Virus record (IMG/VR): IMGVR_UViG_3300014205_000174
Length of the DNA: 64,000 nucleotides
Reading direction: 5' to 3' (one strand)
Origin: a virus
Taxonomy: Duplodnaviria > Caudoviricetes
This document shows, piece after piece, positions 4,403 to 61,329 of this stretch (positions within the stretch are counted from its first letter, which is position 1; the number at the start of each line of letters is the position of its first letter). Both the position numbers and the translations under genes were made by a program. Below the pieces are notes generated by a model that was not told where the DNA came from, did not search any database, and saw only the letters and a program-made list of their open reading frames with translations.

Positions 4403-5614
4403 ATGAACATAACCATATTCGGCAAAGAAATAATAGATGAATCGACCATCATCCAGTTGCAAAACTGCATGGTAGATAATGCAATAGGCGTAATTACCGC
4501 CGACGCCCATAAGGGCTACTCCATGCCGGTTGGCGGGTGCATAGCCTACAAGGATATGATATCCCCGTCAGGCGTCGGATATGATATCGCATGTGGAAAT
4601 ATGGCCGTGCAAACCAATGTACTGGCCTCAGACATTAATGCCAGCCATGTAATGAATGAGATTGCACGACTTATATCTTTTGGTGTGGGCCGCCCAAACA
4701 ATGAGCCGGTAGACCATGAGGTGCTTGATAAGATATCTCAATCGAACTTTGCACCACAGCGCAAAATGGCACAGTTGGCCAAGAGCCAGTTGGGTACCGT
4801 CGGAAGCGGGAATCATTTCGTAGATATTTTCAAAGACGAAAATGGCTTAATCTGGATAGGCGTACACTTCGGCTCCCGTGGCTTCGGCCATAAGACAGCG
4901 TCAGGGTTTATGTCCATGGCCCAGGGGCTTGATTTCGATGAACGTGCCAAAGGCGAGTCCATGGATGCGCCACCTACGCTTTTCGCCACCAATACAGAAC
5001 TGGGGCAAGCTTATATAGACGCTATGAACCTTTGCGGGGAATACGCCTATGCGGGCCGGGAGACCGTTATCAATAAAGTATTGGGCATACTGGGTAATCC
5101 GGAAGTTACTTTCTCCGTACACAACCACCATAATTTCGCATGGAAGGAAAACCACTTTGGTGAAGACTACTGGGTAGTACGAAAAGGATGCACACCTGCC
5201 TTTCCAGGCCAACGAGGTTTTATCGGGGCCAACATGCGCGACATATCCGTTATCGTGGAAGGTGTAGATACGGAACAATCCCGTAATGGCCTGTATTCTA
5301 CCGTACACGGAGCGGGCCGCATTTTATCGCGCACACAGGCTGCCGGAAAGAAGAAGTGGGTCAAGGGGGCGGATGGCAAAAAAAAGCCCGTAACGGTTGG
5401 CAAGGGCGTTATTGACTTTGACCAGGTACGTCACGAACTCACAGAACGCAATGTTGAATTACGCGGAGCTGGTGCCGATGAGGCCCCCGGATGTTACAAG
5501 AACCTGTCAGACGTCTTAGCCTACCAAGGAGACACAATCAAGATACTGCATAAGCTTACGCCAATTGGCGTGGCCATGGCCGGAGGTAATGAATTTGACC
5601 CTTATAAAGACTAA
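4403..5614 (+). CDS. rtcB: RtcB-family RNA ligase
   Basis: Motifs DAHxGYxxPVGG, GVGYDIACG, LGTVGSGNHF, HFGSRGFG, HNHHN, RKG, HGAGR, DEAPxxYK. Confidence 0.95.
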   Translation: MNITIFGKEIIDESTIIQLQNCMVDNAIGVITADAHKGYSMPVGGCIAYKDMISPSGVGYDIACGNMAVQTNVLASDINASHVMNEIARLISFGVGRPNNEPVDHEVLDKISQSNFAPQRKMAQLAKSQLGTVGSGNHFVDIFKDENGLIWIGVHFGSRGFGHKTASGFMSMAQGLDFDERAKGESMDAPPTLFATNTELGQAYIDAMNLCGEYAYAGRETVINKVLGILGNPEVTFSVHNHHNFAWKENHFGEDYWVVRKGCTPAFPGQRGFIGANMRDISVIVEGVDTEQSRNGLYSTVHGAGRILSRTQAAGKKKWVKGADGKKKPVTVGKGVIDFDQVRHELTERNVELRGAGADEAPGCYKNLSDVLAYQGDTIKILHKLTPIGVAMAGGNEFDPYKD

Positions 5615-10129: not shown

Positions 10130-11407
10130 TTAGCTTTTGGAGAGCGGGTTTAGGTTAGAGACCCTCCTTGGACGAACTACAACGCCCTGTATCCCATCGG
10201 CAAATGCGTTAGGGAATACCTTTCTGATAATATTGCCACTGCCATTACAGTCGGCATTAATCAACAAGCCATCTTTGCTCACAAACAAACCGCGCTTCAC
10301 CCGCTTACCAAGGTATTTATCCTGATGTTGTACCGGTTCATTGTCGATGAAGCTGCATTTGCTGGTGTGTGACTCTTCAACAAGAATCACGTCTATACCA
10401 ACCATATCAGCCTTGTACTGCAACATACCGACGAATCTCGCATGCGGAATCTGCACGAAGTTCTGGTTGTTTTTATCGCCGAGGTTGATTTGCTGCTTCC
10501 AGCCGATGTTCTTGCCAATAACCAGCGTTCCGATGTCGTTACTCACCAGGTGCTGCACAATGTACTTGCTTGCGCAATGCAGGTAATGGTCAATCTTGCT
10601 GTTGCGCTTTTCGGTCATCCGTCTGATTCTCTTTGATGTGCCAGTGCCAATAAGCGATTTCAGTCTTGCCAGTTTTTTGTTATAATAAGCGTTGATGCTC
10701 TTTAGCGCCCTGCCGTTAATGAGTAAGGGTGTCACCCCCTCTGCATTTGATGTTACAGCCGCAAGGTTGTCTACGCCGATATCTATGCCCGCTATGTTTT
10801 GTTTGAGCAGGCTTCGTATTACCTCCTTTGGTTTAATGTATACTATTTCTATTGTATAAAACCCGCATTCAGGCACTATGCGTACCTGCTGTATATTCTT
10901 TTGCTTTGTTGGTATTCTTATCATAGTGCCCGATAAGGATACGATGCTTTTCTCTAACGCCGTCTTTGATATAGCCTGTATGGTATAGGTGAGCACGTTG
11001 CGCCCATGGGCTTTGTCCTTATACTTAGGCAGGGCTGGCTGTCCGGTAAACTTATCCTTATTGGCCGACCATACCTTAATGGCGGTAAAGAATGACTTCC
11101 AGTTTTTATCAAGCAGCATTAATACCTGCTGGCTGACCTTGGCGGGGAGCGCCGTGTAGTCCGATTGCTTCTCATTCTGTAGCTGCTTTTGCAGGTCGCT
11201 GTACCGGAGCCAGAGCGCATGCTCCCGCTTGCCTTCCAGTTTCTCTTTACCGCTATCAATAAACAACTGACGGATACGGTAATTAGCGGCATTATACAGA
11301 TTCTTGGACAGAAAGCACAACCTGTCTATTTCTTCGAAATGAACATGACCGGCACCTATCTTATGCCGCTCAACCAATGTTATGCTATTCCCGCTTTTAT
11401 CCTTCAT
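10130..11407 (-). CDS. tnpB: IS200/IS605-family TnpB RNA-guided endonuclease (no tnpA nearby)
   Basis: SKNLYNAANY, GIDIGVDNL (RuvC-I), EESHTSKCS, INADCNGSGNI (RuvC-III); TATATTTG promoter at 11420-11427 favours ATG 11407. Confidence 0.9.
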   Translation of the reverse strand: MKDKSGNSITLVERHKIGAGHVHFEEIDRLCFLSKNLYNAANYRIRQLFIDSGKEKLEGKREHALWLRYSDLQKQLQNEKQSDYTALPAKVSQQVLMLLDKNWKSFFTAIKVWSANKDKFTGQPALPKYKDKAHGRNVLTYTIQAISKTALEKSIVSLSGTMIRIPTKQKNIQQVRIVPECGFYTIEIVYIKPKEVIRSLLKQNIAGIDIGVDNLAAVTSNAEGVTPLLINGRALKSINAYYNKKLARLKSLIGTGTSKRIRRMTEKRNSKIDHYLHCASKYIVQHLVSNDIGTLVIGKNIGWKQQINLGDKNNQNFVQIPHARFVGMLQYKADMVGIDVILVEESHTSKCSFIDNEPVQHQDKYLGKRVKRGLFVSKDGLLINADCNGSGNIIRKVFPNAFADGIQGVVVRPRRVSNLNPLSKS

Positions 11408-11433
11408 GTTGCAATACATCAAATATACAAAAT

Positions 11434-11450
11434 CCGGCACGATTGTTGCA
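11434..11450 (+). promoter_or_regulatory. sigma54-type promoter
   Basis: CCGGCACGATTGTTGCA heading the 11524-15099 gene block. Confidence 0.7.
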
Positions 11451-33638: not shown

Positions 33639-33794
33639 TTACTTCACTTTATCCCTTCCTGGATAATCATCCAGGAAAACTAAAATATTGTCAATGTTAT
33701 CAATCCTTTCTGCATTATCGGTAAGTTGCGCCTGTATTATCTTCTTCTCCTCCCCGCGCAGAAAATAGTCTTCGTCAAATCTGTTTTTACCCAT
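33639..33794 (-). CDS. small hypothetical protein (MGKNRFDEDY..., 51 aa)
   Basis: 3-prime part of the tracked 174-aa ORF, outside the array. Confidence 0.45.
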   Translation of the reverse strand: MGKNRFDEDYFLRGEEKKIIQAQLTDNAERIDNIDNILVFLDDYPGRDKVK

Positions 33795-33902
33795 TGTGTG
33801 TGATGTGATTTTTATGAATTCACTTTCCTTGTTTGTTGCACCTACTTTTTCATGCTTTAATTTCGTCTCCTTACCAAGGATAGTCAGGTAAGAGAGCGCA
33901 GT

Positions 33903-34190
33903 GTTGTAACTACCTTTTGAATGACCTGCAATTATAGTATTGCGACTTATTGTCTGGTTACTTAGTTCTAAAGGGTTGTAACTACCTTTTAAATTACCGA
34001 CTCTCACAACTAAATTTACCGCCAGGGGTTTTATTGTCCAGTTGTAACTACCTTTCAAATTAGGGCCTGCTACAACACATATTTTAATTGCCTGTTTGCA
34101 ATAGTAGTTGTAACTACCTTTCAAATTAGGGCCTTTTACAACTACTGACAGGGTAGCTATCATCTATCAGTTGCAACTACAACTACCTTA
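33903..34190 (-). CRISPR. mini CRISPR array 3 (half repeat, three full 36-nt repeats, one degenerate)
   Basis: Repeats at 34107-34142, 34041-34076, 33975-34010 and 33903-33938, e.g. GTTGTAAAAGGCCCTAATTTGAAAGGTAGTTACAAC; spacers 27-30 nt. Confidence 0.9.
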
Positions 34191-34295
34191 AAAGGCAAAT
34201 ATTTTAAAAAATAAAAAAAGTATTCGGGAGTGGCTAATAATCCCTCCCGCCAAGGACGTACAACCGCCCCACAAAATATTATGTCAAAGAACTTA
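34170..34295 (-). ncRNA. tracr/omegaRNA-like scaffold, copy 3
   Basis: Near-identical to 59107-59232 and 59694-59818; differences fall in the CGGGAG/CTCCCG loop and the linker. Confidence 0.8.
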
Positions 34296-56171: not shown

Positions 56172-57937
56172 ATGAAGAAGAAGATTAGAACTATTGAGCA
56201 CGCCAGCGGCGCTTATAAAACGATGACCCTGCAAATTCTTGGCCTCCGGTTCCCGGAATCTAATTCTGATACCCTTGAAACAATTGGCTGCATAACTTTT
56301 CAGTGTGATGCCGGCGAAGACCGCTGGTACGGTCGCAGCTATAAGGTTGAAACCGACAATCCAGATAATCTTTTGAAAATGGGCAAGTTAGCGACATTCA
56401 TTAAAAACAATGCCGATTCAGAGGCCCAGCCGCAGGAAATAAAGCTGCTTATTGGCGCTGAAGAGCACATATATCATTGCGGCCAGTACATACCGGTATC
56501 CTGCATTGGTATGAGGTATTACAAGGTGATGGATGGGGCCTCTTTTTATTCAAGCATCATTGCACCAAACGATATCATTGCCGAAAAACAACTGGTTGCC
56601 AAAAAGTGGGAGCACATGAAACTGGTTTATACTCATACCATAGCTGCATAAAAATAATAATAATATCTAAAAACATGGCAAAGTCAAACACTCCGAATCC
56701 GGACATAATAATGTTACAAAACAAACTTGCTGATATCCTCCTGCGAGTAGACGAGGGCGACGACCTTGTAATAACCGGTGTGATTGGCGGCTCTATTGCC
56801 ATGAACACAACACATATTCAGAGCGATTGTGTGGCTGAATTTGTAAACAATATCATTACTCTTTACCCGGAAATAAGGGCCTCTATAAAATGAACAACTT
56901 AAAAACAAGCGACCTGAAAACAAATATCATGGTTCGGGATTACCGGCATGACCTCCTAATGTTTGCTGCATATAAGGAATCAGTTCTCGGCCAGTTGAGC
57001 GCGCACATTCTGTCACTCCCGGACAATCCGGAAATTACCAGGGTGGGCAATGGCAACTCTTTTACCATGAGTATTTCCAGCCTTGGGAAATCATTGTCGC
57101 TGTCTGCCGAATCCTATGATTTTAAGTTCCAGTATGGTGTTATTGTTGAAAAAATAAAGAGTGCCGATGATTGCCTGTCTGCTTTGCAGAAAATAGTAGC
57201 CGATGGCTTTATTAAAACCGATAATTACGGCAAGGTTACTTTACATGAGACGGTAGTGGCATACATTAAAGATATCATTGCATAATAATGGAGCGTGACT
57301 ATAAATTCGCTATTGGGCAAACTGTATACACCTATGATGAAGACGAATACCAGTTCATAAAGGGCATAGTAACAGACAAAACCTCTGCTACAGTTTGCAT
57401 ACAATGGGAAAATAGAAAGACCGCGACCGACTACCAGCAATACGATTACGATAAATTAAAAACAGTAAAGCCAAAAAATTATAAGAAATAATGCTAACCG
57501 CAGAAACACTACTTGTACGACCTATTGATGCAGATAAAATAGCTGCATTAATTACAGCTACGCTACCTGCATTACCAGAAGGCGAGACGTACTATGTATC
57601 TCCGTATGTGGCGATAGTACCGGAATATGATAACTGCATATTGACGCCGGACTGCGATTATGACTTTTCAGTAAGCAAGATGTACATAGATGGTGCTTTT
57701 CAGCCTGTTTTTACCGTCAGTGTAAATAAGCGTATCCCTTTTACCACTGAGGACAAATTACCAGGCTACACCGAGAAACATGCATGCCTGTTTAATCTAG
57801 GCATACATACACAGGTTATTCCTTCCCTGCTAAAACAACCGGTAAGTTTACGTGAGTTTATGGGCAGTCAGTACAATTCCAATCCATGCATTAAAAAGAA
57901 CATGAAAGATTGTTTATCCGAAATCAATAATCCATAA
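56172..57937 (+). other. five hypothetical genes upstream of the dCas12f-like gene (56172-56651, 56675-56893, 56890-57285, 57288-57491, 57491-57937)
   Basis: Abutting ORFs; none recognisable as Cas1/2/4 or a sigma factor. Confidence 0.6.
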
Positions 57938-57942
57938 AAATA

Positions 57943-59094
57943 ATGGCTGAAAAACGTATAGTTATTACCCGGAAAGTAAAAATAGACTTTGACGTTGCCG
58001 ACAAGGCCGCATTAAAGGAGTGCTATAATACCGTGTTCTCATGGAACCGGATAGTGCACAAGGCCGCAAACTGGATAATCACGCACCAGTACATGCAGGA
58101 AAACGTAAAGGACTTCTTCTACATTACAGATGCGATAAAGCTGAAGCTGGCCAACATCGACAAAGACGAGGACGGCATACTCACCACCAGCAAGGACAAT
58201 ACCACCTACCAGTTGCTTAGCAAAGCATTTAAGGGGGAATGCCCGATGGGTATGCTATCCGGCCTTAATACGGTTGTGTGCAAGAAATACAAGTCCGATG
58301 CCTTCAAAATAAAGAAAGGCGAAGTCTCCCTTGCCTCTTACCGCAGAAATATCCCTATGCCCATCCGGAGCGCGGATATCTCTTCCTGGGAAAAGCAAAG
58401 TGATGGCAACTATTCATTTTTCGTATACGGCCTGGCTTTCAAAACATGGTTTGGCAAAGACCTGAGCGACAACCAGTCAATATTCGACCGCGCACTGCAA
58501 ACCGGCGAGTATAAGCTTTGTGATTCATCCTTTCAACTGGAAAAGAAAGACGGTAAGTGGAAGATGTTTTTCCTGGCAGTATTCTCCTTTGACAAGGAGC
58601 TTGTTAAGGTGGATGAAAATAAAGCCGCTGTTTGCCGGCTTAGTATACAATACCCGATTGTTATTGCAGAAAAGAAAGACAAGTTCTGGCATATCGGCAC
58701 CGCTGAAGAATATATGCACCGCAGGCTGGCCATACGCGGCGCTTTACACAGGGTTCAAAAAGCCTGTAAGTATAATAAAGGGGGTAAGGGCCGGGACAAA
58801 AAGCTACATGCCATAGAGCGCTTTGAAGACGCTGAAAGCAATTACATTAATAGCCGCATGCACCTTTATAGCCGACAGCTAATTGATTACTGCATAAAGC
58901 GCGGTATCGGCAAGATTGTACTCGACAACTACAAGGAGGTTGTTGACAAGACACATCAGGAGAATGAGGAAAGTAAATTTTTGCTGAGCTCATGGAGTTA
59001 CTTTAATTTAGCTGATAAAATAAAATACAAGGCTGCAAAAGTGGGCATATTGGTGGAGATGGAAGGAGACCCGGAGCCCGAGCCAGTAATTTAG
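57943..59094 (+). CDS. nuclease-dead Cas12f/TnpB-like RNA-guided DNA-binding protein
   Basis: ITRKVKI N-terminus, GEVSLASYR..IPMP, LCDSS.Q; RuvC-I read as AVCRLSIQYP (no Asp), bridge helix KGGKGRDKKL, HLYSRQLID, RuvC-II IVLDN, WSYFNL..KI.YKA..GI.V then stop (no Zn finger or RuvC-III); scaffold and array follow directly. Confidence 0.85.
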   Translation: MAEKRIVITRKVKIDFDVADKAALKECYNTVFSWNRIVHKAANWIITHQYMQENVKDFFYITDAIKLKLANIDKDEDGILTTSKDNTTYQLLSKAFKGECPMGMLSGLNTVVCKKYKSDAFKIKKGEVSLASYRRNIPMPIRSADISSWEKQSDGNYSFFVYGLAFKTWFGKDLSDNQSIFDRALQTGEYKLCDSSFQLEKKDGKWKMFFLAVFSFDKELVKVDENKAAVCRLSIQYPIVIAEKKDKFWHIGTAEEYMHRRLAIRGALHRVQKACKYNKGGKGRDKKLHAIERFEDAESNYINSRMHLYSRQLIDYCIKRGIGKIVLDNYKEVVDKTHQENEESKFLLSSWSYFNLADKIKYKAAKVGILVEMEGDPEPEPVI

Positions 59095-59106
59095 TTTGTT
59101 TTTCAG

Positions 59107-59232
59107 TAAGTTCTTTGACATAATATTTTGTGGGGCGGTTGTACGTCCTTGGCGGGAGGGATTCTTTTCCACTCCCGAATACTTTTTTTATTTTTTAATG
59201 ATATTTGCCTTTGTTTGAAAGGTAGCTACAAC
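59107..59232 (+). ncRNA. tracr/omegaRNA-like scaffold fused to half repeat, copy 1
   Basis: Hairpin GGGGCG-GTTGTA-CGTCCT with loop complementary to repeat end TACAAC; CGGGAG/CTCCCG stem; TGCCTTT anti-repeat pairing with AAAGGTA. Confidence 0.8.
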
Positions 59233-59460
59233 GGTAAGCCGTCGTCTACGGGCACTGTGAGTTGTAAATGACCAGGATTTGAAAGGTAGCTACAACCTTA
59301 GTCGCACAAAAGGGAGCGACCTGCATGGCTGTAAAAGACCGGAATTTGAAAGGTAGTTACAACAACCAGAGGATAACGGTTTCACGATATTGTGAATGAC
59401 CATAATTTGAAAGGTAGTTACAACGAATGGTAACGGTTTTACTTAAACAGAAAGTTGTTT
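59214..59460 (+). CRISPR. mini CRISPR array 1
   Basis: Half repeat ending 59232; 36-nt repeats 59261-59296, 59328-59363, 59389-59424; spacers 28, 31, 25 and ~29 nt; degenerate GTTGTT at 59454. Confidence 0.9.
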
Positions 59461-59461
59461 T

Positions 59462-59677
59462 ATGAATAATGTGCGAAAAATTGGTCGCTGTTTTAATGGG
59501 GCCGAAAGAGACGGAGGAAAGACGGTACATGCTATTGACTCCGAAAAGCCAAATGGAGACTGGTTTGGGAAGGCCGTTTGCGGAACAGAACCAGGGTATC
59601 GGGGAAACGGCTGGGCGAAAACAGATAAACCAGTAAGTTGTACACGGTGTATAAATAAAATGGCGAAACGCACGTAG
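59462..59677 (+). CDS. small Cys/His-containing hypothetical protein between cassettes 1 and 2
   Basis: 71 aa; VHA...AVCG...VSCTRC. Confidence 0.65.
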   Translation: MNNVRKIGRCFNGAERDGGKTVHAIDSEKPNGDWFGKAVCGTEPGYRGNGWAKTDKPVSCTRCINKMAKRT

Positions 59678-59693
59678 AGCGTGTGTGGCTTTT

Positions 59694-59818
59694 TAAGTTC
59701 TTTGACATAATATTTTGTGGGGCGGTTGTACGTCCTTGGCGGGAGGGATTCTTTTCCACTCCCGAATACTTTTTTATTTTTTAAGGTATTTGCCTTTGTT
59801 TTGAAAGGTAGTTACAAC
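59694..59818 (+). ncRNA. tracr/omegaRNA-like scaffold, copy 2
   Basis: Nearly identical to copy 1. Confidence 0.8.
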
Positions 59819-60092
59819 GATTAATAGTTCAAGTTCACTGATTTTTAGTTGTATAAGACCATAATTTGAAGGGTAGTTACAACACATAAGCTACTACAAG
59901 AAGCATTTTCACTGTTGTGAAAGACCCGAATTTAAAAGGTAGTTACAACGTACATTCATTGGGCTAAATTTTGATTTGGCTGTAAAAGACCCAAATTCAA
60001 AAAGTAGCTACAACTAAAGCAGTGATATAAAACATCATGGGCCTGTGTTCACGTTACGTGAACGACCATTAAACCAGTTTAAGTAGCTACAC
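59800..60092 (+). CRISPR. mini CRISPR array 2
   Basis: Half repeat ending 59818; 36-nt repeats 59848-59883, 59914-59949, 59979-60014; spacers 29, 30, 29 nt; degenerate end AAGTAGCTACAC 60081-60092. Confidence 0.9.
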
Positions 60093-60111
60093 CCAAAAAC
60101 AATAAGAACGA

Positions 60112-60642
60112 ATGAGAATAATATTCCTTGACATAGACGGAGTCTTAAACAGCCAGCTTTTTTACACTGAAAGAAGTCAATGCCAAAGGGCCAGTGATGG
60201 CGCAGGAGCCGACATTGACGAGCGGTGCGTTAATTACCTAAACAGCCTGATTGCAGAAACCGGAGCAAAGGTTGTGATAAGCTCCACCTGGCGGTCAGAT
60301 GGCCTTGAATATTGCAAGACGGCATTGGAGGCAAAGGGCTTTGTTGGCGAGATAATCGATGTCACTCCTCACTTACGCCACGAAGGCTGTCTCAGAGGCA
60401 ATGAAATCTACCACTGGATACAGAAAAACAGCGAGATGCTATGCGGGAGCACAAATGGCAGCGACTTCAAGGAATATGTAATATTTGACGATGATAGCGA
60501 TATGCTGTACTGGCAACGCAACAACTACATCCAGATTGACGCCTATTGCGGACTCACTCCGAATCAATGCTACAGGGCCAAATTTATTCTCTGCCGTGAT
60601 ATGACTTTCGGAGACAGTTTTGGAAATAATATAAAAAAGTAA
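60112..60642 (+). CDS. HAD-domain protein (Swiss Army Knife RNA repair-like)
   Basis: IFLDIDGVLN, VVISSTWR, RG.EI..W, YVIFDDD.DM, GLT. Confidence 0.88.
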   Translation: MRIIFLDIDGVLNSQLFYTERSQCQRASDGAGADIDERCVNYLNSLIAETGAKVVISSTWRSDGLEYCKTALEAKGFVGEIIDVTPHLRHEGCLRGNEIYHWIQKNSEMLCGSTNGSDFKEYVIFDDDSDMLYWQRNNYIQIDAYCGLTPNQCYRAKFILCRDMTFGDSFGNNIKK

Positions 60643-60750
60643 CTACAACACTATAAATTAAGGTCAGGTGGGGCAAAAAACTAAGTTTTGGCCCAGAAAT
60701 ATGTTTTATTTGATATTATCACATATCTTTGGCCCTTAATCCACCCCTTC

Positions 60751-61329
60751 ATGGCTTCTGATTTTAGAAAACAGACAAGTTATCCGCGCGGGATTCGAAA
60801 TAATAATCCTGGTAATCTGGTAGAGGTATCATCCGGATGGCTGGGCCAGTCAGGCAGCGATGGCAGATTTGCCGTATTTGAGAGCATGCCATGGGGTATC
60901 CGGGCTTTTTTAATGAATTACTACTCTTCTATAGAGAGGCATAAGATTTCCACCCTTACTGATTACATACACCGGTATGCACCGCCATTCGAAAATGACA
61001 CCACCAAGTATATTAATACCGTTGCGGCCCGTGCAGGCATTGACGCAAACGGGCCTATACCTACAGACCGGGATACGGTAACCAAAATCATGCGGGGCCA
61101 GTTCGAAGTAGAATTAGGCAAGAAGTATGCCGACATGATTACGGATGATGATATAAATGGCGGCTTTGAGCTCCTGAGCAGCCCGCTGAAGACCTTTTTT
61201 AATTCCATAACAATTTTCTATCACAGCAACCCAGCCGCAACATACGGCATAGCAACTGCCTTGGCCATTGGCGCAAGCATGCTGGTCTTTGGTGGCATAA
61301 AGCTTATCCGCTCCGCCAGGAAGAAGTAA
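60751..61329 (+). CDS. RNNNPGN-family lysozyme-like/virion protein with C-terminal TM
   Basis: RGIRNNNPGNL, RFAVF...GIRA, RYAPP.ENDT..Y; TATCTTTG promoter at 60724. Confidence 0.75.
   Translation: MASDFRKQTSYPRGIRNNNPGNLVEVSSGWLGQSGSDGRFAVFESMPWGIRAFLMNYYSSIERHKISTLTDYIHRYAPPFENDTTKYINTVAARAGIDANGPIPTDRDTVTKIMRGQFEVELGKKYADMITDDDINGGFELLSSPLKTFFNSITIFYHSNPAATYGIATALAIGASMLVFGGIKLIRSARKK

Follow-up and report, generated by a model that had tools for sequence, protein, structure and literature searches.

A putative natural single guide followed by a CRISPR array at a sigma-less dCas12f locus of a virus-like contig

Nuclease-dead Cas12f (dCas12f) has been described in a large sigmaE-linked group that carries out RNA-guided transcription with single guides, and in a distinct cluster that lies beside CRISPR arrays and lacks rpoE; the putative guides of this cluster precede the arrays, and its members are suggested to be repressors (Hoffmann, 2026; Nature, PMC13472631). 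By RIP-seq the guides of dCas12f are scaffold-then-guide RNAs, and the sigma-less cluster is placed inside Cas12f (Fig. 1b of that paper). Altae-Tran (2023; 'Sigma-TnpB', PNAS, PMC10691335, section 12) proposed that Cas12f lost its activity and RuvC-III, that of the array only a half repeat next to the tracrRNA was left, and that the fusion of these two gave an omega-like RNA in which the repeat's 3' end is retained. The later paper gives the same direction, from Cas12f tracrRNA plus array to a fused omega-like guide. Canonical Cas12f1 guides combine a long repeat:anti-repeat (R/AR) stem with a short R/AR pseudoknot of 5-7 bp (PMC11246509).

We analysed a 64,000-nt stretch of viral DNA (hereafter the window; IMG/VR record IMGVR_UViG_3300014205_000174), in which a dcas12f gene is accompanied by three guide cassettes, A and B on the plus strand and C on the minus strand, with 13 spacers altogether (Table 1). 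Its nearest described counterparts are the array-linked, non-rpoE dCas12f loci (PMC13472631, Extended Data Fig. 1a,b), which likewise have a truncated, dead protein, no sigma gene, arrays and a covarying putative scaffold upstream of the array. The window differs from them in the large, virus-like nature of the element, in its three cassettes, of which one is at a distance of 24 kb from the gene, and in a scaffold that runs on into a half repeat and first guide and has an array behind it. Viral carriage is not discussed in PMC13472631, where the word 'phage' appears once, in a reference. The dCas12f-sigmaE systems (PMC13472631; 9n9c, bioRxiv 10.1101/2025.06.10.658880) have a homologous protein, a homologous scaffold and a guide at the 3' end, and single guides occur together with arrays in some Sphingobacterium loci as well. 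In those systems, however, an operonic rpoE, coding for a sigmaE with a C-terminal extension, lies directly upstream, and none is present in the window; their guides of 14-16 nt match sites upstream of regulated genes.

The more distant systems can be set against the locus in the same way. In canonical type V-F Cas12f1 the crRNA likewise carries its spacer on the 3' side of the repeat part, and the window matches the combination of long R/AR stem and short R/AR pseudoknot; unlike Cas12f1, the window effector is predicted to be dead and lacks the Zn finger and RuvC-III, and its short scaffold of ~60 nt lies on the same strand immediately ahead of the array and is fused to the first array unit. 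TldR (bioRxiv 10.1101/2023.11.30.569447; some prophage-encoded) is a functional analogy: the RuvC protein is again small, truncated and dead, its guide is at the 3' end, and mobile elements use it to repress transcription. But TldRs arose directly out of transposon TnpB, rely on a single omega-derived guide and go with fliC or oppF, while the window protein is Cas12f-derived by homology and has arrays. The omega RNA of TnpB (IS200/IS605) overlaps the 3' end of the ORF and runs up to a transposon end, whereas the window scaffold starts past the stop codon; neither TnpA nor transposon or IS ends were seen at the locus, the neighbours of which are ORFans in synteny with the relative L176. The fused half repeat predicted in the Altae-Tran scenario is seen in the window, but here it occurs next to an array remnant that looks functional and without a sigma partner, a stage that is not spelled out in the part of that paper considered here. 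The locus may be described as a Cas12f CRISPR system partly collapsed towards a fused guide, with the array still present. Its protein family, its scaffold and the evolutionary route are already published and it is no new category; it is a concrete example of the inferred stage at which the tracrRNA is fused to a half repeat and an array still follows, and with it the collapse from dual guide to single guide becomes testable on one small locus.

The 383-aa protein matches PDB entry 9n9c_A ('Nuclease-deactivated Cas12f') in a phmmer search with E 6.5e-81, collinearly over residues 5-369 against 5-360, and the next PDB matches are active Cas12f structures; the family profile matches it with E 3e-142, and a Pfam search of the ORF gave no match. 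Hundreds of homologues of 360-400 aa were found. In 31 of the 31 aligned homologues the C-terminal end comes directly after the W-Y..YKA..GI motif, leaving no Zn finger and no RuvC-III, and the window protein stops 14 residues past YKAAKVGI. The columns of the RuvC-I Asp and the RuvC-II Glu are not conserved in the dCas12f family: active Cas12f (9nzo) has 'DLG' and 'ME', the window protein R and D. Because of the homology to 9n9c, the profile match and the replacement of the catalytic columns, we identify the product of 57943-59094, on sequence grounds, as dCas12f, a nuclease-dead Cas12f; the active RuvC nuclease of canonical type V-F is missing by truncation after RuvC-II and by substitutions.

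No sigma-70 r2/r4 gene was found upstream of dcas12f, nor any sigma-like match below E 0.3 across the window, and the ORFs upstream of dcas12f had no Pfam match and no similarity to six Pfam-confirmed sigma ORFs. The fetched bacterial loci (Sphingobacterium, Pedobacter, Chitinophaga and others; ~40% identity) have an ORF of ~270 aa with sigma-70 r2/r4 directly upstream. In a maximum-likelihood (ML) tree obtained by a quick search and rooted only by six longer Cas12f-like homologues, which fall outside both groups, the sigma-linked proteins form one clade (126 rows, support 100), and the window protein falls in a sigma-less group of 23 rows together with array-bearing viral and metagenomic loci. 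It is thereby positioned between the full-length Cas12f-like proteins and the sigma-linked single-guide clade, which is compatible with the published direction from Cas12f to fused guide. By these comparisons the window protein belongs to the described sigma-less, array-linked dCas12f cluster. A 148-aa upstream ORF was considered as a conserved partner and rejected, being common only to the syntenic L176 and not to other sigma-less loci.

The guide block at 59107-59296, which opens the repeat block, begins 13 nt past the stop codon of the 383-aa ORF, and the conserved block starts 16 nt past it, outside the ORF. Each cassette consists of a scaffold, a half repeat, a first spacer and an array, and A and B end in degenerate repeats (from ~59454 in A, about 60048-60085 in B). 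In cassette C the first unit ends with TGCAAC (34175-34170), in the form GTTGTAGTTGCAAC, and the loop of stem 2 is ATTATTAGCC. A mechanical ORF call at 33639-34163 overlaps cassette C and is probably spurious. The GTTCTTTGACA element at the head of each cassette may be part of a promoter or a boxA-like signal; its spacings misfit a plain Bacteroidota -33/-7 promoter. An element GTTCTTTGA[AC]AT stands ahead of the scaffold in L063, L073, L076, L087, L091, L093, L114, L176 and L180, and was found in loci of both dCas12f groups, sigma-linked and sigma-less. Between cassettes A and B there is a 71-aa ORF (59462-59677) that has no family match and overlaps the degenerate last repeat of A; a terminator-like hairpin (59668-59686) follows this ORF just ahead of cassette B. 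Spacers A3 (59364-59388) and A4 (59425-59453) have the 9-mer TAACGGTTT in common, which may reflect related target sites or chance.

Table 1. Position of the dcas12f gene and of the parts of its guide cassettes in the window.
Feature	Position	Strand	Basis or remark
dcas12f; 383-aa, C-terminally truncated Cas12f, predicted nuclease-dead	57943..59094	+	phmmer, family profile
Conserved GTTCTTTGACA element, head of each cassette	59110..59120	+	identical in cassettes A, B (59697-59707) and C (34292-34282, minus strand)
Stem 1 (strands GGGGCG 59132-59137, CGTCCT 59144-59149) with 6-nt loop GTTGTA (59138-59143), putative pseudoknot/short anti-repeat site	59132..59149	+	folds, compensatory changes, loop-repeat covariation
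Stem 2 (CGGGAGGGA...TCC.CTCCCG)	59153..59177	+	folds, compensatory changes
U-rich anti-repeat TACTTTTT (59180-59187), directly 3' of stem 2; may also be a stop for some transcripts	59180..59189	+	pairing and covariation with repeat
Local hairpin TGCCTTT (59206-59212), loop GTTTG (59213-59217), AAAGGTA (59218-59224); links second anti-repeat to half repeat	59206..59224	+	MFE folds
TACAAC, predicted 3' pseudoknot strand, adjoins guide 1	59227..59232	+	perfect loop complement, unpaired in MFE folds
Guide/spacer A1, between half repeat and first full repeat	59233..59260	+	sequence layout
Array A: full 36-nt repeats 59261-96, 59328-63, 59389-424; spacers A2-A4	59261..59480	+
Cassette B scaffold and half repeat, nearly identical to A	59697..59818	+	pairwise alignment, nhmmer, fold
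Array B: spacers B1-B4; repeats 59848-83, 59914-49, 59979-60014	59819..60085	+
Cassette C: same scaffold, half repeat, four further repeats, five spacers	33874..34292	-	24 kb from effector gene

The minimum free energy (MFE) folds of the three cassettes agree in four elements: stem 1, the hexaloop of which is free, stem 2, the TGCCTTT/AAAGGTA hairpin, and a TACAAC strand that stays unpaired (z -3.1, -3.9 and -1.6). A scaffold profile built from 11 scaffolds gave 266 nhmmer matches in 146 of 167 sequences, all of them on the strand of dcas12f, and the window scaffold is homologous to the guide scaffolds that adjoin ~145 dCas12f genes; an Rfam search of 57000-61000 with E up to 1 found no match. 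Among 39 diverse scaffolds compensatory changes occur in 10 of the 13 pairs of the two stems (3/5 in stem 1, 7/8 in stem 2). Judged by this covariation, which preserves the stems and not the sequence, the scaffold is a real conserved RNA. As in the described dCas12f loci, a structured putative scaffold thus stands beside the gene with a guide at its 3' end. Stem 2 with the U tract escapes the simple terminator scan because the T run lies 6 nt away from the stem; we therefore only infer that a short form of the scaffold may end at the U tract.

The scaffold would pair with the repeat at two sites. The loop GTTGTA is perfectly complementary to TACAAC, the last six bases of the repeats, and the variants read from the 266 homologous scaffolds show the loop (positions 2-6) changing together with its downstream complement: TTGTA with TACAA, TTGTG with CACAA, TTGCA with TGCAA, CTGTA with TACAG, CTGCG with CGCAG and, in L083, TTCGG with TCGAA. 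Where loops end in T, just 4 repeat bases are paired. When loops were compared with their own repeat ends, taken from repeat alignments only and with automatic, rough repeat boundaries, shuffled partners equalled the observed pairing in 12 of 5000 trials, in a test that ignores relatedness among loci. By that measure the predicted pairing of loop and repeat end exceeds chance. The second site is the U-rich TACTTTTT (59180-59187), which makes 8 contiguous pairs with GAAAGGTA of the repeat and is an anti-repeat conserved throughout the family. It covaries with the repeat across loci (GTACCCTA/TAGGGTAT, TGACCTT/AAGGTTG, ATACCTTTT/GAAAGGTAT, and ATTTTT-type tracts with AGAAAT), and shuffled partners equalled the observed value in 5 of 5000 trials, relatedness among loci again being left out of account. 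Taken together, the two predicted pairings match the long and the short repeat:anti-repeat pairings described for Cas12f tracrRNAs; as in canonical tracrRNAs of this type, a long and a short anti-repeat are complementary to the repeat, and in the dCas12f loci both covary with it.

TGCCTTT is a further anti-repeat, private to the three near-identical cassettes of this element and without independent covariation; its hairpin has the loops GTTTG, GTTTTG and TT(TA) across the cassettes and is absent or decayed in L176, the closest syntenic relative. Over 10 full repeats conservation is 0.95 in the 3' half against 0.79 in the 5' half, a pattern that would fit selection on the 3' half only. Much of this had been noticed in a first-pass annotation of the sequence. 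Its hairpin GGGGCG[GTTGTA]CGTCCT at 59132-59149 is correct in letters and coordinates; the complementarity it saw between loop and repeat end holds, with covariation in homologues as added support; the repeat copy it reported with TGCAAC exists and is the first unit of the minus-strand cassette C; its pairing of TGCCTTT with AAAGGTA across a short loop returns as an MFE hairpin in all three cassettes; and the 5' halves of the repeats do drift while the 3' halves are kept. The second pairing site had been missed.

The cassettes are probably the source of guide RNA for the adjacent dCas12f; we hold this reading, including its use of guides in cis and in trans and a repressive function, with moderate confidence. 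The scaffold of ~60 nt would correspond to the Cas12f tracrRNA. The loop GUUGUA of stem 1 would pair with the repeat-terminal UACAAC as the short repeat:anti-repeat, forming a pseudoknot that adjoins the guide, and after stem 2 the U-rich UACUUUUU would pair with GAAAGGUA of the repeat as the long one. With half repeat and first guide following the scaffold in cis, and the local hairpin UGCCUUU/AAAGGUA in addition, the first unit could act as a natural single guide; it contains every part of the single guides established by RIP-seq for the sigma-linked group. The three to four trailing repeat-spacer units might be loaded by pairing with the scaffold in trans, which is possible because the later repeats keep both pairing sites in their 3' halves. 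The trans scaffold would be either a short form ended at the U tract or one supplied by the other cassettes, and the complexes, once bound to DNA, would silence genes of the host, of rivals or of the element itself. The presence of three such cassettes in the window makes the arrangement of a natural single guide plus an array plausible. A scaffold fused to the first guide with an array behind it is found in the window, L087a and L089; L001, L002 and L092 have single guides only, and Pedobacter loci have tandem guides. Several observations count against the preferred reading: one scaffold per 4-5 guides is a stoichiometry problem, stem 2 plus the U tract is not called as a terminator, TGCCTTT lacks independent covariation, the spacer searches yielded no target, and the decaying terminal repeats and 5' halves could mean that the arrays are on their way out.

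Alternatively, the scaffold may be a separate tracrRNA that ends at ~59189 and is followed by an independently transcribed ordinary array, the half repeat being a first repeat with a decayed 5' half, so that there is no cis guide. We consider this unlikely, though it keeps an appreciable chance. L081, L083, L091 and L176 have the scaffold apart from a full first repeat, with the anti-repeat and T run, then 20-77 nt, then the repeat, and the family-conserved anti-repeat precedes the T run and is not at TGCCTTT. Such a division fits poorly with the window, where the half repeat comes ~17 nt past the T/A-rich tract and forms, in 3 of 3 cassettes, a 7-bp hairpin together with an anti-repeat of its own, and where no terminator or promoter is called between scaffold and half repeat. 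Single-guide transcripts with such a layout are known from related sigma-linked systems (PMC13472631). It is improbable, in our view, that only the fused first guide of each cassette works and that the trailing repeats and spacers are decaying CRISPR relics. The drift of the 5' halves and the degenerate terminal repeats would be explained, array minimisation is expected in the published scenario (PMC10691335), and no match to adaptation genes (cas1, cas2, cas4) was found among the ORFs near the locus. But the 3' halves are 95% identical over 10 repeats and three cassettes, with both pairing sites intact. In a related sediment-metagenome contig the scaffold recurs at ~93% identity and the spacers between the repeats behind it are different, which argues for spacer turnover and not for a fossil array. 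L176 has kept 10 uniform repeats while its half repeat has decayed, which argues that arrays are served by a scaffold in trans, and one of the internal spacers of L081 matches the virus's own genome almost perfectly (see below).

The layout alone would fit either direction of evolution, and the first-pass annotation had labelled it an omegaRNA-to-CRISPR intermediate. Its comparison with a Cas12f- or dCas12f-type scaffold, having a pseudoknot by the guide and a repeat:anti-repeat duplex, stands; the label does not. That an ancestral omega-RNA single guide is here starting to grow a CRISPR array is very improbable, even though TnpB-to-CRISPR intermediates (TranC) are mentioned in parts of the literature for other lineages. 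The protein is truncated and predicted to be dead, and falls in the tree between full-length Cas12f-like proteins and the sigma-linked clade; the scaffold begins past the stop codon, with neither transposon ends nor TnpA; and PMC13472631 and PMC10691335 both infer the opposite course, from Cas12f to a dead effector to a fused guide. Least credible of all, we think, is that the conserved block is an ordinary CRISPR leader, holding a promoter and adaptation signals and having no role as RNA. The block does lie, leader-like, at the end of the array opposite the degenerate repeats, but the covariation keeps RNA stems and not sequence, changes in the repeat are matched by changes in both loop and U tract, and in many loci the same scaffold stands directly before single guides that have no array.

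The searches for targets of the 13 window spacers were all negative. Against the window itself there were chance-level matches only; against GenBank phages and against all fetched loci no match or target was found; 401 Bacteroidota genomes gave repeat matches and marginal hits only; and exact 20-mers of A1, A2 and C3 had no match in IMG/VR. The first 16 nt of spacer B4 (60015-60030) match the 5' coding region of dcas12f (58013-58028) at 14 of 16 positions on the sense strand, where shuffled spacers have a mean of 0.47 hits; this partial match is no better than chance, but its position parallels the self target of L081. Spacers of the viral relatives L081 and L083 had self matches only in IMG/VR. 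L081, from the sigma-less group, is a complete 77.6-kb IMG/VR virus with a dCas12f array, and an internal spacer matches its own DNA at 29 of 30 positions (L081:4636-4665 and L081:2821-2850). This target falls within the 97-aa ORF that immediately precedes dcas12f, with the crRNA in coding-strand sense. Such a self match is tolerable only with a non-cutting effector, and suggests autoregulation by roadblock. In a Chitinophagaceae metagenome-assembled genome (L181:1501-1516, G001) with a sigma-less dCas12f, the only guide is 16 nt long and has its matching site, with the 5' flank CGTTTT, ~20 bp ahead of an outer-membrane efflux gene (OEP, TolC-like) and just downstream of a response-regulator gene; the same efflux example is given in PMC13472631.

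By analogy with these two relatives, which make repression the best guess for the window, the function of the system is probably RNA-guided repression. Activation through sigmaE cannot be assumed, and repression is likelier, since there is no sigma partner and the sigma-linked proteins form a separate clade. More tentatively, and with less than even confidence, we propose that a large virus-like element uses a dead Cas12f for a multiplexed natural CRISPRi, in which one promoter would yield both a fused guide and a trans scaffold, and 13 guides in three dispersed cassettes would silence genes of the host, of rival viruses or of the element itself. If true, this would be a working hybrid of the single-guide and dual-guide modes within one transcript. 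The near-perfect self-targeting spacer beside the effector gene of L081 points to RNA-guided gene regulation by viruses. For tool development, a programmable DNA binder of 383 aa could be of interest, as it may work with fused guides and with guides derived from arrays. In the viral contig L083 the same 36-nt spacer occurs twice in an 18-repeat array (4582-4617 and 5022-5057), suggesting that duplication or recombination, and not acquisition, enlarged this array.

The window is part of a 211-kb contig from a landfill metagenome. It has PHROG matches, many ORFans, RtcB and a HAD RNA-repair gene, and relatives in IMG/VR, and the carrier is likely a virus or other large mobile element. Sigma-less dCas12f with arrays is carried by viral or virus-like genomes. 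The separate 435-aa, full-length TnpB-like ORF (10130-11437, minus strand), with OrfB_IS605 and a Cas12f1-like TNB domain, is unrelated to the dCas12f locus. The RtcB-type RNA ligase and the HAD domain of the 'Swiss Army Knife' RNA-repair type (4403-5614 and 60112-60642) suggest RNA-repair functions on the element.
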